Source of the DNA: Tubulanus polymorphus
Lineage: Eukaryota > Animalia > Nemertea
NCBI RefSeq assembly: GCF_964204645.1
Contig: NC_134025.1
Span: 6,014,001 to 6,078,000, forward strand
Direction: 5' to 3'
DNA: 64,000 nucleotides
Shown: piece after piece, positions 1-58,666 of the stretch
Layout of the letters: every line of letters begins with the position of its first letter
Numbering within the stretch: position 1 is the first letter of the stretch
Program-made: the position numbers and the translations under genes
The notes under the pieces: model-generated
The model's database searches: none
What the model was told of the DNA's origin: nothing
What the model saw: only the letters and a program-made list of their open reading frames with translations

Positions 1-2440
1 GATTATTCATCATTCATACTGTTATCACAGAATCCCGTCAATAGACAGATTTTCATTAAAAAAAACTCCTCGATGCAATTGACGGGAGATATATGAGGCA
101 TTTTTAATTACTTGAAGCCAGAAAATGAACGATCATGAAATGCGGCTTGAAGGTGAACTTTTTTGGGCGCGAAAAAATTGGACAAAACGAACGTAAAGTC
201 AAAGACACATGCTAACATTTAATATGATAGAAAACCATTCAATAAACATGTGAAGGGGCAACGGGTTGTTAATTTTCGGGTTTTAGGATCGCTAGCCCTG
301 TTACGTTAGAGATTGTACTGAATGTCTCAATGCGTCAATATTCCCTGATACGCTACAAAAGCGGTCGTCACCGTAATAACGACCTACATATGTATCTACG
401 GAGGTCAATCGCTGAGTGCTGGTACTTAAGTAATTAAAAACTAATTAAAAATTAAGTAATTTTAATTACTTTGAACTTTCAAGTCGTGGAGTCTCTTTTC
501 TCTCATGGACCCCTTTCGGTGAGGCCAGTGAACCCCGACCGCCACCACCCCGCCTACCGCCAGGCTTTCTCAATGTACTCCTCTATACAAATTCATAAAA
601 ATTAACCCCATGATATTTTGTGAATATTCTTTGTAAATATTCTGAAAATTATACAAAATCATTTTGTTATCCTTAATTCACGTATTTAAACTACCAGTGC
701 GACGCGGCCCGCGAGTATTGACGAAATACGTCCGTGACCATCATTTTCGTTGCCGCGATTTAGCCAATGCCCATGTGTCCCGGATGTAAACTACACTTTT
801 TGAGAAGGACGTATGGAATACCTCAAGGGCCATACGACTTATGAGTTACGTTTTACGAGTTACGATTTACGTTTTACGAGTTAATATGTCAAAGTCGAAA
901 CTTGGTGAAGCGCACAGCCAGAGTTTTATCGATTTAAATAGAGGCGAGTGCCCTTTCGGCAACTTATATAGAATTCTACGTTGTAAAAAACATAGGTTTT
1001 GCGGGGGGGCACGTGTTCGGTGTGGTCCGTGGCCAAAGAAAATCACCCAAAATGTCGAAGATCTATTCAAGCGAAGATTCGCCGTGATCAAATACATGTA
1101 TAGAAAAGGAATTCCTTTTTGCGAAAAAAAACATGCTTTGAGAGTGTTGATTACAAATTGATAAGCCTTGTTTGTTTTATCTTTCATACCAGAATAAATC
1201 TTTCTGTATCGTCAGATATCTTCTACGAACGGCTTTAACAGTTATGTTTTACACAAGAAATTTGTTTCCAAGTTCTACATTGTAAAGAATGTAGGTTTTG
1301 CTGAAGGAAGGCACCCGGTGGCGTGACCAAAAAAAATCACCCAACATATGATAGACTCGAGCGAATAAAGGGACCCGTGATTAAAGAAGAAAAAAAAAAT
1401 CATTTTCTGCGAAAAACAACGTGGGAGTTTGGGGATGTTGATTACATATTGAGAGCCTATTGTTTTATCGATTATACGAGAATAAATTTTTCTGTAGTTA
1501 AAAAACGTCAGATTTCTACATTAAATCTCATGGCTTCAATAGTTTTATACGTTTTACACTAAAGATTTGTTCCTAAGTATTACAACGGGTTGCATGGGTA
1601 CGGAATTAATGGAACAACGGTATTTTAAATACGGATTAATAGCGAATTTTACTCGAAACGGAAAAGGGGATAACGTTTGAAAAACGGGAGTAAAAAACAC
1701 ATAAAGATACGATATGTTAAAAAACGAACGGCATTTTACTCCCAAGGATTGGCAAAATTTTTAGTTAATTATTCAGTTCTTGTGTGTGGGGCGGGTCGGT
1801 CATTTTGTAACACGCGGACCGCGCGCGCGCGCGTTATTCTCCGGGACTCGACCCTTAGTGATGCTGTGAAACCGGCGCGCTTGTTATTCTAAAAAATTCG
1901 ACCCGTTGCTAAGGGACTGTGCTTTTTGTGGGATTCGAATCCAGTCTTCCAATCGGTTTCTACGGAGAAATACGAACTAAAAATAACATTTTTTGACAAT
2001 ATTTTGAGGATATTTTTGGTAAATATTCTGAAAATTACACAAAATCATTTTGTTATCCTACATTGACGTATTTAAACTACCCGCGCGTCGCGGCCCGCAA
2101 GTTTCGACGAAAGTTCGTCCGTGACCGTCATTTTCGTTGCCACGCTTTAGCCAATGCCCATGTGTCCCGGATGTAAACTACACTTTTTGAGAAGGACGGT
2201 ATGGAGAAATATAGAAAATTTGAATTTGCCTCCTACGCGCGATTAACTTTTAAGGAGCTTCCAGCTCGCGCCTTCGGCGCTCGCTGTGCGCTTATTAAAC
2301 CAGGCGGTGCCTAACACTTGTAACAAACGTCTCTGTGACACGTTAAAGCGAACGGCTCTAGATACAATGGGGGAAAGATTACTAAATTAGGTAAACGTAC
2401 CAACAATGATAAAGCCTCACGTCACCATTCACGTAATGTC

Positions 2441-4914
<2,474 letters not shown>

Positions 4915-9197: not shown

Positions 9198-15292
<6,095 letters not shown>

Positions 15293-16234
15293 CAAAATGT
15301 ACCTTGAAATCAAATAGTTTCGAATGTTATTAAAGAATCAGCATCGTCCACTATTACCAGTATGTAACCAGCAGGATATAGTTGGGTTTGTGAACAGCGA
15401 TCATGATAAGTCATTGTACAAAATGTAGTTGAATTTTCCGATAGCCTGCAGTGGGGTTATCCTATGATTTTATCTCAAAGGTTCTTAAATCTGTTTTCTG
15501 TTACATGTAAGCCTACCTGGTTGCTGTTTTTTTTTAAATTTTTCTTGCTGTTGATTATTTATGTAATTCTATCACTGAAAATACGTATGCCCCGTTACAT
15601 CATGGACTTTAAAGTGTCCGTTTTACATACATTGATCGAGTGATTTCTTATTTAGTGTTTGAACTTGGTGTTAGGTGTTAATGTTGCGCTAAAAGTGTAA
15701 ATAAAATACTTGTGTTTAGTGTCATATGTAATTATGTGAAAAAGATTAATATACACCGGTACCGTATCATTATTATTATTATCAAAATAAATATCATTAT
15801 CAGATTAATTTACCATCAAAGTTTTATTTTTTATTTCACTTTCAAAGTCTATAGTGATATATATTACACTATTTATTAATCAAGTATATGAGTTGATTTA
15901 TTTATTGAACAATTGTAAAGTTGAATGACGAGTGAATGAAAATAAACTTCAGTATGATATAACTATATACTTTGTATCCAGTTCCGTGTTAGTAATATTG
16001 ACTAAGTGGATTCTCCGTTGAATTCTATCAGGCGACACTGTGTATAACACACGTCACTACATAGCAGCACTGCACTGTATTACCATTGAATTAACAGAAT
16101 AGTTCTATGGTATTACGCACAGTCTAGTACTGTAAACCTCAACTGATAACAAATAGAGATTGAATTGACTGTTCATTCAAACTATGAATATCTAAGTTCA
16201 AGTTCTGGACCGCACGTGTGCACTCAGTTACAAA

Positions 16235-19200
16235 ATGTCGAAGCATATATCAAGCTGTGGTTTGTGTAACTGGCAGAAATTAGTCTGCGCTGGGACGCGG
16301 ATTCAGATACTGAGGAATTTCGCTGTTAGAAGTGGCGATACACCTGATTTACCTGACTATAATACAGATGTAAATATTCATGAACATAAACTGAAGCGAC
16401 CGAAACCGGCGTCCGAGCGCCCATCCTGGAAAGGACTTCGGAATCTGGAGAAAAGGACTGAGGTAATTAAAACAAAATAACGCGAATGAGTAGTGGATAC
16501 AAATTAGATCTATTATTTACATTTCAGAAAATAAAGTATAAAAAGTACTAACTACAGTGGAACCTGTTAATACGAAAATCTTGCGGGCAAAACTGATAGT
16601 GATATTGTTGTAATTAACCGTTTCGTGTATTAACTAAAGTTGATATAACTTGAGTTGATATACATTTCATAGTGGGACACATCATGATAGAAATCATACA
16701 CGGGTTGCATACAGCTACGAGCAATTGTTCAGATAATTGCTCGTAGCATACAGAATCGTATTAACGAGGTTCGACTACCTCCAAGTGCTCACTCAGTCAG
16801 TGGCCTGAATGTATGGCGTTGGTATGCTTGTTTAATCGGATATTCCGCGGAGGTTCGTAAAATTCAAAGGTTACGGCAAAATCTATAGAATTTAAACATA
16901 AAAAGGCAGGGGTGGATCTAGACGGGAGCACGTGCTCCGGTCGCAAATTCTGAGTGCCCTTTTTGAAAAAAGTGCGAAAAAAATTTTCCACTATAAAGTT
17001 CATTATCACATTGTTTCCATATTAATAAATTCCCATCTCTTAAAGAATTGTTGCAGAATGTCATTTTTGTGTCTCAGGTGCCTGGAAATTGCATTAAAAT
17101 GGGTTGAAATTCAAAAATTTTCTAGCAGAGGTCCCCCAGACCCCCGCGAACGCTTCGCGCCTTCGGCGCTCGCCTGTCATAGATAGGCCTAGTGCCTTTT
17201 CTTATGAATTGCCCTTTTTTTCAATTCTGTGCTCCTGTCATTGCCTGCCTCTAGATCCGCCCTTGAAAGGCGGTCGTTGACGGCAAAATCAATCCATGTC
17301 ATATAGGGCCCGGTCCTACTTACCAGTGCTTTGACCTATTTTATCGAACCATTTCGTCGAAAATTGCTCGGGAAAATTGTTTGTCAGTCATTCGCAACGC
17401 TTTTTAATGCTTGCGAGCGATTATATTTCGTCGCCACGTGGAAACAAAGTTTCGTCAATTTGTTCGTCAATTCTTCACATTCCATTCGCCAAGCTGCATT
17501 GACGAATTGACGAAATTGACGAAATCGTATTTTGGCATTTTTTTGGCACACAGGGTCCCCAGGGGCGGTAGGTTGAAATATACGTGATTTAAACACGTTA
17601 CCGGGCGCGGGTCCGATGGTGATAAGGCTATAACGAGAGGTTACATGAGAATCTATACAATCAAAACATATATATGTAGACGTGCGTTGACTTCAAATTC
17701 GTTGCAAAATCAATCCATTGATTTTGATATTCTAGGGATCACTGATTCCGGATACTTTGAAAACCATTGAGGGTGATGAAGAATTCAAAACAACCCTTGA
17801 AAAGCTGAAGAAATTTGGCCAAAAGAAACTGACGCGTGAAGAACGCACTAGACGCCGGCGGGCACTGGATAAATTTGGAATTCCAAATTTCAATAGATTT
17901 TTACAGGAAAAGAAAAAAGAATTTGGAGTTGAAGGTAGGTTTCTAGATCGGTTGTCGGCATTTTTTTGTTATGAATCACGCTTTGAGCTACAAAAACGGG
18001 TCAAAGCATTATGGAGAACGGTGGTATCACCAGTGGCATCATATATACAAGGAATTATCTTTATGAATTCAGATGGCAAAACGCACCTGGGAAAGAACGC
18101 GATCAACGTATTGCAGTTGAATATAGGTGTATATTGTAACCAAGCATGCAATCATTGCCATGTCGAATCTTCGCCAAAACGTAAAGAGATGATGAACAGA
18201 GATGTAGCTGATAAATGCTTGGAGGTTTTATCTAAAAGTCCTCTCATTCAGACTGTGGATATAACTGGTAAATGTGTAGAATGCATAGCTTCAATTTCCT
18301 CCATGGACGTTAATGTGTTATTTTCTAATCTCATTTAGCGATCTAATTTTCCAATCAATCGCTGAATTCTGAATGTGAATTTTGAATAAATAGGGCACCA
18401 ATAGGGCCAATGACATTGAAAATGAGAATAGGTCTACGAATAGAAACATTTTTGAACGGTAGATCACGAAGATAGTTACAAAGTAAAGATTCCTCTGCGG
18501 AGATTCTATCACTTATCCATCTTTGACAGGAGGAGCCCCTGAATTGTGCTCGGAATTTCGCTATATAGCTAAGAAGGTGCGAGATATGAAACTACACTCG
18601 ATTGACAGATGCAATCTAACTGTACTCTCAGAACCTGGTAAGAGAACTTGAAATCGACTTTTCAAAGGAAAGCGGATTGTATCATTGAAACAATATTCGT
18701 TCTAATTTTCTAGGACAAGAAGATTTGGGCGAATTTTTGGCGGATAATGGCATCCATGTGATCGCTTCTTTGCCTTGTTATTCGTCCAAAAATGTTGATA
18801 TGCAACGAGGAAAAGGTGTATTTGACCGCAGTATCAGAGGCCTTTTACTACTGAACAGTATGGGGTATGGAAGGCCAGGTAGCGGCTTGCAATTGGACCT
18901 GGTTTACAACGCTGCGGGTAAGTGTTGAAAATCAATCCTTGTTCGAAATTTAGGCTAAATATTTGGAGTGGAGTTTCTTTTTCTCGAAGTTACGATTGAT
19001 AGTTACTCACGCGAGCGTAGGAATCTCCCATGACATCATTCATCTGGGAGGAAAGCGTATGACCGGTTGCGCTCGTCTACATACCGGTATATAATGGTTG
19101 TTTTTATTTACAGGTGCTTACTTGCCTCCGCCTCAAGAAGAGTTAGAAGCTCATTACAAAAAAGAACTTATGGGGACATTTGGAATCGAATTCAACAAGC

Positions 19201-19768
19201 TTTATACCATGACTAATATGCCAATAAAACGTTTTGCTGATTTCTTGCATAGACGGTACTGAGCGTAATTAAATGAAGAAGAGAATCACTCGCATCATTA
19301 TTTCAGATTGTAATATTTGAATAGGCGTAGAATCCTTTATTTCGTATATCTTTCTCATTTATTAGCAACGAATTGGAAGAATATATGAGCATTTTATTGC
19401 GCAATTTCAACATAAATACGATTGACAACTTAATGTGTGTAAATCACCTGAGTGTAAATTGGAATGGAACGTTATCAGATTGTGATTTCAATCAGCAGCT
19501 CGCCCTCGGAATCAAAGGTAAGGAAATATCTTTTCGAGTGGTGGTGTTCAGAAATCAAGTCTGTGCCAATATTTTTGAAAGGATTTCAATTGCCCGGCTA
19601 GTGTACGTGTTAATTGTGTATTTTTCAGACAAGAAAGATGGCAAAGACCTATCGATATTTGACATCGAATCCACGGAAGAACTGCACAATTACCCTGTTA
19701 TGTTGGATAACCACTGTTTCGGTTGTACTGCTGGGATGGGGTCCAGCTGACAGGGCGTTCTAGCATAA
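16235..19768 (+). CDS. Radical SAM / DUF3641 (ArsS-like, Cys-rich C-terminus) protein; predicted selenoprotein with Sec at TGA 19748-19750
   Basis: Eight exons with consistent phases: 16235-16462, 17736-17934, 18073-18267, 18530-18637, 18714-18917, 19114-19255, 19366-19517, 19629-19768. Motifs: LQLNIGVYCNQACNHCHVESSPKR (CxxxCxxC), VDITGGAPEL, IDRCNLTVL, ASLPCY, LDLVYN, TNMPIKRF, DCDFNQQL, HCFGCTAGMGSS-TGA-QGVLA-TAA. Family recognised from memory of these motifs. Confidence 0.9.
16553..16778. mobile_element. Tc1/mariner-type MITE remnant
   Basis: TA-CAGTGGAACCTGTTAATACGA ... TCGTATTAACGAGGTTCGACTA inverted ends in intron 1 of the radical SAM gene. Confidence 0.55.
16907..17265. mobile_element. 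MITE, CAGGG-end family, 5-bp TSD
   Basis: Ends CAGGGGTGGATCTAGA ... TCTAGATCCGCCCTTG; direct repeat AAAGG at 16902-16906 and 17266-17270. Confidence 0.78.
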
Positions 19769-19788
19769 AACCAAAAATGATTGTTCTA

Positions 19789-19864
19789 GATGGACTGTTG
19801 ATGACGTTCGTTCTCAAAATCTCACCTTCGAGAGGGGAATTCGAACCGATAACTTAAGTTCATC
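19789..19864 (+). promoter_or_regulatory. Eukaryotic SECIS element, form 2
   Basis: Helix I GAUGGACU (19789-19796)/AGUUCAUC (19857-19864), 8 bp. Core A-UGAC (19801-19805)/CGAU (19847-19850). Helix II GUUCG+UUCUC pairs with GGGAA+CGAAC around a UU bulge. Unpaired AAAA (19816-19819), apical mini-stem UCUC/GAGA. Lies between the TAA stop and AATAAA. Folded by hand. Confidence 0.9.
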
Positions 19865-19939
19865 ATTCATTACTCTTTATGTCCCTTATCTATGCCAGTG
19901 CAAATTGTGTTCAATTTCGAGCAATTTTGTTTTTTATTC

Positions 19940-19945
19940 AATAAA
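19940..19945 (+). terminator. Polyadenylation signal of the radical SAM gene
   Basis: AATAAA ~75 nt after the SECIS, followed by a GT-rich element (tttgtagtgtggttg). Confidence 0.65.
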
Positions 19946-22017
19946 CGATAAGCTTTTGAACTTTGTAGTGTGGTTGATCCGGGTCATAGATATATAGACT
20001 AGGGGTCATTCATTTAGTAAATACGCATTGGGGAGGGGTCTGTGTAATTTCGTAATGCTTAATGTAGGCTGTATGAAAAAGTGGCCAAGAAACTTAAAGA
20101 ACTCAAAGTTTGTAGTAAAAGAAAAGAAACAATTACTGCATCAAAAATAAAACTTTTTATTAGTCAAATTGTCAACAATCTTTGAAGATTAAGTTAAATT
20201 CATTGGATTAACTACATGAGTTGACTGAACTGAAAATCGATCCATAAATTGCCCATCATTACCTTAAGAAAATAAAATCCAAGTTAGGAAGGCCTACACG
20301 AATGCCTAGGTCTGGTAAACCAAAATGATAATTTCAAAAAACGTCTAGAAGTCTCGGTCCAGCAATAAGTAACTTCAAATTAGAATTCAGAATATAAAGT
20401 TATCTATCAAAAACTTGCGACGTCTGCTGTATTCATGGAGGAGTTAACAGAACAGAATTGCAGTGTTCACTTTTCAGCAGTTCTAATCATCAATTGATAT
20501 GTTTACAGGAAATCTCAAAATAGTTCAAATAATTATCTCTATCAGTTTTTCAGTATGTATGTCTTAGAAACATTGGATGTTGAGTCTGGAATCTTAAACA
20601 CAACGATTAAATCATGGATTAAACCAATTCGTTTTAGAGTCCATGATTAAATGAAAAAAATAAATTGCACAAAAATGCATTTGAATAGTTGGTAGAATAT
20701 TGATGCGTAGATACCAGTGTCACGTCGAAGTTCTTATTATAACTTTTCAAAGTCGGATTCTTCAGTGTTCGGATTCATTGACTCGGGGGTTTGCACAATA
20801 CAATCTTTATACAAATTGTGACAATTATTCTTGTATCACCTTGGATTTTTTTTTCGTGGAAAACTTGCCGTGAAATTAATAGTTAATCACCTACAATCTT
20901 TTCGTTGTCATGATAATTAAACATATCGTGTTGTATCGTTTTCGCAGTCGATTAAGGCCTATTGGCCTATAATTTGACTGCCTCGACGTTTCACTTAAGT
21001 TGCCAGTCGTTTCCCTCAATTCCGGGAAACATTCAAGCCCAAGGCTCTCGACCCCCGAAGTAGGAAATGCTTTTCTTGCCAGTGTTTCATGACCAAGACG
21101 TTATTTGACTAAAGCATTTTTAGATGGAGCATACACATATCTTTCCAACGGCGAGCTCCAACCACTGTGGCGGAGAAGGAAGTAGGGACTGATCAACGAA
21201 GAATGCTCAATTTTTGGTTGGATCTCGTAGCACTAAGGAGTCTCCGACCCTGTAATTGTTATTTACCTGACTAGATCGTAAACCGGCAGTTTATGTCGTC
21301 TCTTGCTCTTCGATAACTCAACTATGGATTTCAAATGACAATGCAGGATGCATATCTCAAAAGTCTATCAGTAACAAATTGATTTTTTCACTAACATTGA
21401 TTTATGAAAGGAAATGTGCAAATTAATCGGTAATCAACGGTAAGGCCATCAGTAACATCATCGCCTATCACCATCATCTTCAATCGGTGTAATCCCATCG
21501 TCAAATTGCTTATGGCTGCTGACTAGCCTCTTCTCCCGATAGCTGTCATCATAACGCGATTTTGTTGTTTTAGTCGCAATAAAAAGCGATAAAGATCTTA
21601 TTAGATCCCCGAAAAGTGGATGTATTAGGATCGTAGCTATCATATAGGCATGTACAGCGACCTGCCGTGCTCAATCGTGTGGTCGACCATTTCCAGGTCC
21701 GAACCTTGGAGTAATCAGACTGATTAATCCAAGGACTAAACTGACATCGGTTTCGTTTAATTCAACTATAGTCGACTAACTCGCTACTCCCAATAACCGT
21801 AGTTCGTCCGCTGAGGGTTGAGACCGGCAACCAGTCTAGCTATCAATCAGTGTCCGGTTTCTACGTCCAATTCTGCGTAATTTCGGTAACGCGCGACACC
21901 CGGAACTCATGGAACTCTAAATTCAAATCAAAATTCTTTGAAGATGAACATTGGGGCCCTTATTTCATGAAATAAGCTTAACATATCTAACTCAATTGTC
22001 AAAAAATAGATACAGCC

Positions 22018-58666
<36,649 letters not shown>

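Follow-up and report, generated by a model that had tools for sequence, protein, structure and literature searches.

Does the UGA codon near the end of a radical SAM gene in the nemertean Tubulanus polymorphus terminate the protein, or is it read as selenocysteine (Sec)? The window analysed here, 64,000 nucleotides of contig NC_134025.1 (positions 6,014,001 to 6,078,000 of the RefSeq assembly GCF_964204645.1), contains a spliced gene of eight exons (16235-19768; Table 1), whose product comprises 455 residues including one in-frame TGA. The spliced frame of 456 codons has stops at codons 450 (TGA) and 456 (TAA) only, and its 14 Cys and 3 Trp codons are all standard. A first-pass annotation, made from the letters of the window, had read the last exon with TGA at 19748, QGVLA and TAA at 19766, and had stated that the open reading frame falls six residues short. 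Both statements hold: the exon translates as HCFGCTAGMGSS-TGA-QGVLA-TAA, and the UGA together with the five codons behind it accounts for the six residues lost in the ORF and database version. Since the TGA stands where relatives have a Cys, and a SECIS-shaped hairpin lies just behind it, the gene likely encodes a selenoprotein; judging from the sequence, we consider it very probable that UGA 450 is recoded to Sec in a protein of the ArsS family.

Table 1. Features of the ArsS-family gene and its 3' region (positions within the window)
Feature	Position	Strand	Basis and remarks
Coding exon 1	16235..16462	+	Joint 16460>17734 (cut +2) in run X2; carries the eukaryote-type PDYNTD segment
Coding exon 2	17736..17934	+	AG/GT ends, X2 joints; helical N-terminal extension
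Coding exon 3	18073..18267	+	Acceptor set by X2 joint 17932>18071; TIGR04167 73.5 bits
Radical SAM CxxxCxxC in exon 3	C164 18135, C168 18147, C171 18156	+	Kept in 104/104 homologues
Coding exon 4	18530..18637	+	Profile search, X2 joints, splice ends
Coding exon 5	18714..18917	+	Profile search, X2 joints, splice ends
Coding exon 6	19114..19255	+	Profile search, X2 joints, splice ends
Coding exon 7	19366..19517	+	DUF3641 region, PF12345; invariant C383 (19436), C398 (19481)
Last exon, coding part	19629..19768	+	Invariant C439, C442, then UGA, QGVLA, TAA; TIGR04167 positions 266-303 of 303
In-frame TGA, codon 450, predicted Sec	19748..19750	+	Only TGA among 456 codons
TAA, predicted true stop	19766..19768	+	Tail of 6 residues, as in 36/41 Cys homologues
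Form-2 SECIS-type hairpin	19789..19864	+	Anatomy, pattern searches, Rfam match below threshold
Candidate polyadenylation signal AATAAA, first 3' of hairpin	19940..19945	+	X2 contig continues beyond

Contigs of four runs (X1 to X4), which belong to one study that is possibly the window's own source and whose library type is not on record, were aligned to positions 15900-20400. In run X2, a single contig of 2339 nt spans all seven introns, each of them bounded by GT..AG, and, apart from a single letter at 20265, agrees with the window throughout 19627-20400, so that TGA and hairpin share one spliced molecule. Cleavage of the mRNA before 19864, which the first-pass annotation had named as a finding that would speak against its proposal, is not what this molecule indicates, as it continues past 19864; contigs, it should be noted, cannot show mRNA ends. 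The contigs of X1, X3 and X4 contain none of the seven joints and cover UGA and hairpin without differences. The putative start of exon 1 is the sole stop-free in-frame ATG within 16139-16300, and exon 2 has no NCBIfam match, its segment being absent from the bacterial model. An acceptor of exon 3 at 18052 was ruled out by the X2 joint, which places it at 18073. As the X2 contig passes through a 3' repeat and runs 240 letters past 20400, a long 3' UTR or several 3' ends are possible.

Two observations on this region can be added. Repeats at 16650-17720 (intron 1) and 19977-20400 (far 3') are marked in all four runs by many short contigs, high depth and loose ends. Ahead of the putative start lies a short upstream ATG frame (16169-16195) of three codons followed by TAA; here, X2 and X3 have lost two letters and gained five relative to the window, probably an allele.

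To which family does the protein belong? Six of the eight exon pieces match TIGR04167 (rSAM_SeCys ArsS; PF04055 plus PF12345/DUF3641) in order and reach the last model position; scanned separately, the last one with C in place of U, they sum to 339 bits, the cut-off for a whole protein being 300. PF12345 (DUF3641) gives 87.9 bits (cut-off 24.9), and the animal homologues P0003 and P0004 (63-65% identical) as well as P0053 score 402-407 bits with TIGR04167. Identity of the spliced protein is 65% to Owenia, 65% to Lingula and 63% to Priapulus. With the known family it shares the domains, including the CxxxCxxC motif and the C-terminal Cys-rich DUF3641 domain with Cys or UGA at 450, the predicted C-terminal GxxU Sec and the invariant cysteines, of which seven core residues (C164, C168, C171, C383, C398, C439, C442) are present in 104 of 104 homologues. 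In contrast to bacterial ArsS, we find a spliced animal nuclear gene with about 150 extra N-terminal residues and a likely mitochondrial presequence, with a eukaryotic 3' UTR SECIS-type hairpin in place of the bacterial element and with no adjacent arsM. Two sources (PMC13188914, PMC9312934) list TIGR04167, in their accessible parts, among the predicted selenoprotein families of prokaryotes, with the motif GxxU. The assignment to the radical SAM/DUF3641 family and the mention of bacterial Sec members in the first-pass annotation agree with this; the name ArsS/TIGR04167, the short distance between UGA and SECIS and the likely mitochondrial presequence had escaped it.

Homologues were restricted to a length of 351-2000 aa. 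Among the best 120 of 262, 63 stop exactly before the UGA position, 41 carry Cys there and 16 are without the motif, while U occurs in none of these 120 stored proteins. Every homologue reaching past the column (41/41) thus has Cys in it, with Gly two residues on in all 41, Gln as the next residue (QG) in 38 of them, and a tail of 5-7 residues, mostly six. The alignment that the first-pass annotation had suggested as a check on its recoding proposal hence bears the proposal out, as does the spliced molecule extending past 19864: an in-frame UGA is aligned with a conserved Cys, and conservation continues beyond it, as looked for in a selenoprotein gene. Of the 25 animal records that carry a name within these 120, 16 are cut at this point, 8 have Cys (seven echinoderms and Priapulus) and one is without the motif; twelve further cluster members from molluscs and amphioxus, the Pacific oyster included (P0128, P0129), are all cut at GSS. 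Reading the UGA as Sec would correct a systematic annotation error, since 16 of the 25 named animal records in this set end before the predicted Sec. For the 63 shortened proteins, the codon that follows can be seen only through a matching locus (L003, corresponding to P0079), which belongs to no named animal.

More codons can be seen in 53 metagenome loci, where the position is occupied by TGA in 8, TGC in 25 and TGT in 18, the motif being absent in 2; TAA or TAG occurs in none of the 51 motif-bearing loci. Five of the eight TGA loci, two of the loci being near-identical, continue with QG plus 3-5 residues, and three are without QG: L005 has one Ser and then a stop, L010 and L013 an immediate TAA. 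In these tailless loci (L010 1017-1022, L013 1069-1074, L005 1348-1356), either Sec is the final residue or the tail has genuinely been lost. Rfam finds no SECIS in the eight TGA loci, not even when the UTRs of three of them are scanned by themselves, and two energy-filtered patterns find one in 0 of 8. A pair-count pattern, written after inspection, yields hairpins in two of the eight TGA loci and in none of the 43 Cys loci, which are a weak control as most of them look bacterial; in shuffles it matched 3 of 1000 for L006 and 0 of 1000 for L008. The two SECIS-type hairpins (L006 1332-1395, L008 1425-1487) lie in eukaryote-like loci, and Rfam detects neither. Hairpins noticed by eye in L003/L004 and L053 failed the pair-count pattern and were not counted.

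A phylogeny was calculated with FastTree from 115 rows, omitting 16 matches without the tail motif and with ten loci assumed, unchecked, as bacterial outgroup. The window protein falls within a set of 38 rows (support 97) containing the named bilaterians, nearest to Owenia, Lingula, Lineus and Priapulus (6 rows, support 90), while echinoderms form one clade and molluscs another. This placement points to a protostome invertebrate as the most likely host and suggests that the gene was passed on vertically within animals. The cut or Cys state changes at least 12 times on the tree. An amphioxus query retrieved brown algae, and no vertebrate, tunicate, insect, nematode or cnidarian, among the named rows of its best 120 of 2136.

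What lies behind the UGA? The first-pass annotation had described a complete form-2 SECIS with an 8-bp helix I, a UGAC/CGAU quartet, AAAA and a mini-stem, and this anatomy is confirmed: helix I (19789-96/19857-64) has 8 of 8 pairs, the core is formed by UGAC (19802-05) and CGAU (19847-50), helix II has 10 of 10 pairs and a 2-nt UU bulge, the apical AAAA (19816-19) is placed 11-14 nt from the core UGA, and the apical mini-stem measures 4 bp. All the elements common to eukaryotic form-2 SECIS (RF00031), that is helix I, UGAN/NGAN core, helix II, apical AA and mini-stem, can accordingly be recognised. The Rfam score is subthreshold, as SECIS_1 (RF00031) covers model positions 1-64 of 64 with 21.5 bits (E 0.12), the gathering threshold being 35. 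Folded in SECIS shape, the element reaches -19.2 kcal/mol compared with -19.8 for the unconstrained minimum, and its folding energy is no better than that of shuffles (z -0.21). Two search patterns were applied, both written with the element already known, so that the following chance rates are optimistic: the first finds a single site in 128 kb (both strands), namely the hairpin at 19789-19864, and four matches in 40 shuffled windows, none as good as the hairpin; when the 300 nt following the TGA are shuffled 1000 times, the second matches in 2 cases, and elsewhere in the window it picks up two weaker sites on the minus strand. The hairpin is SECIS-like by anatomy and outside RF00031 membership in Rfam. 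Anatomy, pattern controls and one contig place this SECIS-type element in the 3' UTR of the same transcript as the UGA.

The distance between the two deserves attention. From the UGA, it is 38 nt to helix I and 51 nt to the core, whereas for mammals the accessible part of the source gives distances of 207-5207 nt, with a reported minimum of 51-111 nt (PMC3316567). A spacing of 51 nt just reaches the bottom of this minimum range and constitutes the main argument against efficient recoding. In the homologous loci L006 and L008, UGA and core are 43 and 53 nt apart, which suggests, from two examples, that short spacing is a family trait rather than a sign of decay. The short distance also offers a natural test of the spacing rule.

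Could the UGA then be a real stop, with the protein ending at GSS and with tail and hairpin being decaying relics, or with the hairpin simply too near the UGA? The hairpin has kept every one of its 22 helix pairs, and the read-through tail retains the QG and the six-residue length of the Cys homologues, neither of which fits with decay; in addition, the complete lack of TAA and TAG among the 51 motif-bearing loci and the comparably short spacing in L006 and L008 speak against termination. On the other side stand the distances of 38-51 nt, at or below the mammalian minimum (PMC3316567, accessible part), the Rfam score below threshold, the 63 of the best 120 database proteins that end at this very point, and the three of eight TGA loci without a QG tail. 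Weighing these, we hold a real stop to be improbable. A second possibility is read-through without selenium, with Cys, Trp or Arg inserted at a leaky UGA-C, or a UGA that generally is a sense codon in this organism. A C does follow the UGA codon, a context known to be leaky, and Cys works at the equivalent of position 450 in echinoderms and Priapulus; yet the standard Cys and Trp codons and the lone TGA of the gene do not agree with such decoding, a complete SECIS-shaped element would be superfluous, and a TGA at 15290 seems to terminate the frame of the adjacent NRAMP gene (its putative true end), which argues against a general sense codon. This explanation is very improbable in our opinion, and recoding to Sec remains the reading followed below.

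The location and the structure of the protein can be outlined by prediction. Among its first 30 residues are 4 R/K and no D/E, and the N-termini of 24 named animal homologues contain 2-8 R/K and 0-3 D/E. Such a composition, with basic residues and few acidic ones, is typical of mitochondrial presequences, and the N-terminus likely is one. For the Cys homologue P0004, AlphaFold gave a model, based on an 88-row alignment, with a pLDDT of 88.8 and a pTM of 0.90 and with low confidence for residues 1-16 and for the final five (449-453, pLDDT <50), which directly follow the Cys/Sec position. Among solved structures, the folds closest to the model are those of EpeE, SuiB and BlsE, SPASM/Twitch-type radical SAM enzymes with 13-16% identity. 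According to the accessible parts of two further sources, ArsS adenosylates DMAs(III) to DDMAA (PMC13598754), and in ArsL, a C-terminal Cys tail binds As(III) and is needed for the C-As bond without being a cluster ligand (10.1101/2024.02.01.577332). ArsL, the radical SAM enzyme of arsinothricin with its RCCLKC tail, can serve as a model of an arsenic-binding tail for the Sec tail predicted here; it differs in belonging to another family, in forming an ACP radical instead of a 5'-deoxyadenosyl radical, and in having three Cys rather than one Cys/Sec.

By analogy, the following mechanism may be proposed. UGA 450 would be read as Sec by recoding of the SBP2/eEFSec type that the 3' UTR hairpin controls; the resulting protein, with the end GSS-U-QGVLA, would be directed into mitochondria by its presequence. 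There, C164, C168 and C171 would hold the SAM-binding [4Fe-4S] cluster and C383, C398, C439 and C442 would ligate an auxiliary cluster, while the Sec on its flexible tail would bind dimethylarsenic(III) and present it to the 5'-deoxyadenosyl radical. The product would be 5'-deoxy-5'-dimethylarsinoyladenosine, an arsenosugar precursor. The auxiliary cluster and the mobile, arsenic-binding Sec tail are suggested by the invariant cysteines, by the low confidence of the tail in the model and by the analogy to ArsL.

Provided that the UGA is recoded, we lean towards arsenic chemistry of the ArsS type, an assignment that the comparison with known enzymes makes reasonably probable. The animal members score about 100 bits above the equivalog cut-off, the seven core cysteines are invariant (104/104), and close homologues are carried by brown algae, which are known accumulators of arsenosugars. 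Alternatively, the animal selenoprotein may have ceased to make arsenosugar precursors and may act on a different mitochondrial substrate, for instance a small molecule of thiol, selenium or Fe-S type, in which case Sec would serve as a redox centre or ligate a cluster. This alternative concerns the function and leaves the recoding untouched; it is possible, though the weaker assumption. It draws on the long extra N-terminal helical domain of the eukaryotic members, as seen in the P0004 model, on the ArsM partner gene not being found nearby (none of the window's 134 long ORFs encodes an arsenite methyltransferase or a member of any methyltransferase family), and on the sequence search for a solved ArsS structure, which returned none apart from one weak match. 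To our knowledge, the only ArsS member assayed is cyanobacterial, which we also count in its favour. The high scores, the invariant cysteines and the algal homologues, as listed for ArsS-type chemistry, speak against such a substrate.

Taken furthest, these data would suggest that a large number of invertebrate lineages (sponges, molluscs, annelids, brachiopods, nemerteans, copepods, hemichordates and amphioxus) inherit a mitochondrial Sec-tailed ArsS, which is miscalled six residues short in public annotation as a whole, changed to Cys in echinoderms and priapulids and apparently was lost in vertebrates, and that they make their own arsenosugars with it instead of solely taking them up with food, tying selenium supply to arsenic handling, with a SECIS working about 45-55 nt from the UGA, under the range accepted for mammals. 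As a whole, we offer this as a tentative and rather doubtful proposal. If ArsS activity is kept, the enzyme would permit a direct test of whether invertebrates, shellfish among them, produce some of the arsenosugars they contain. It would likewise permit the role of Sec in a radical SAM enzyme to be probed, as natural Sec and Cys forms coexist.

How new would such a selenoprotein be? A 2019 article by Baclaocos et al. (J Mol Biol 431:4381) is said to describe an 'RSAM' selenoprotein in the Pacific oyster. It is perhaps of the same family, as the oyster has an ArsS-family gene, annotated to GSS (P0128, P0129); likewise, the algal 'FeS oxidoreductase' selenoprotein may belong to ArsS. Our literature search found no paper naming an animal TIGR04167 member as a selenoprotein, the likeliest sources (Baclaocos 2019, and the metazoan selenoproteome review of Tico and Mariotti) being outside its reach. 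The terms 'RSAM' and 'radical SAM' are absent from the accessible parts of the 2012 metazoan selenoprotein survey and of PMC3473315, PMC13134290, PMC12822975, PMC7539508, PMC6627142, PMC7435645 and PMC13059024, and from the accessible supplements, one file of PMC13134290 and part of those of PMC12822975. An animal ArsS selenoprotein probably is already known in outline. Novelty is modest, since the family is already listed as a prokaryotic selenoprotein family and in view of the oyster report.

The surroundings of the gene contain no tRNA gene within the window. Upstream, on the plus strand, lies a gene for an NRAMP metal transporter (Pfam matches 12399-14198, gene roughly 11100-15292), the one whose last frame appears to end on TGA 15290; its adjacency to a metalloid enzyme is probably due to chance. 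Downstream follows a gene for an XRN 5'-3' exonuclease (23040-25014, plus strand) with matches to XRN_N and XRN_M. At 2339-4005 on the plus strand, an RVT_1 reverse-transcriptase domain extends across two frames and represents a broken retroelement. Finally, the NRAMP intron region contains two similar stretches in opposite orientations (14319-14750); the short peptides read from the two strands are nearly the same, and a small inverted repeat element is the likely explanation.
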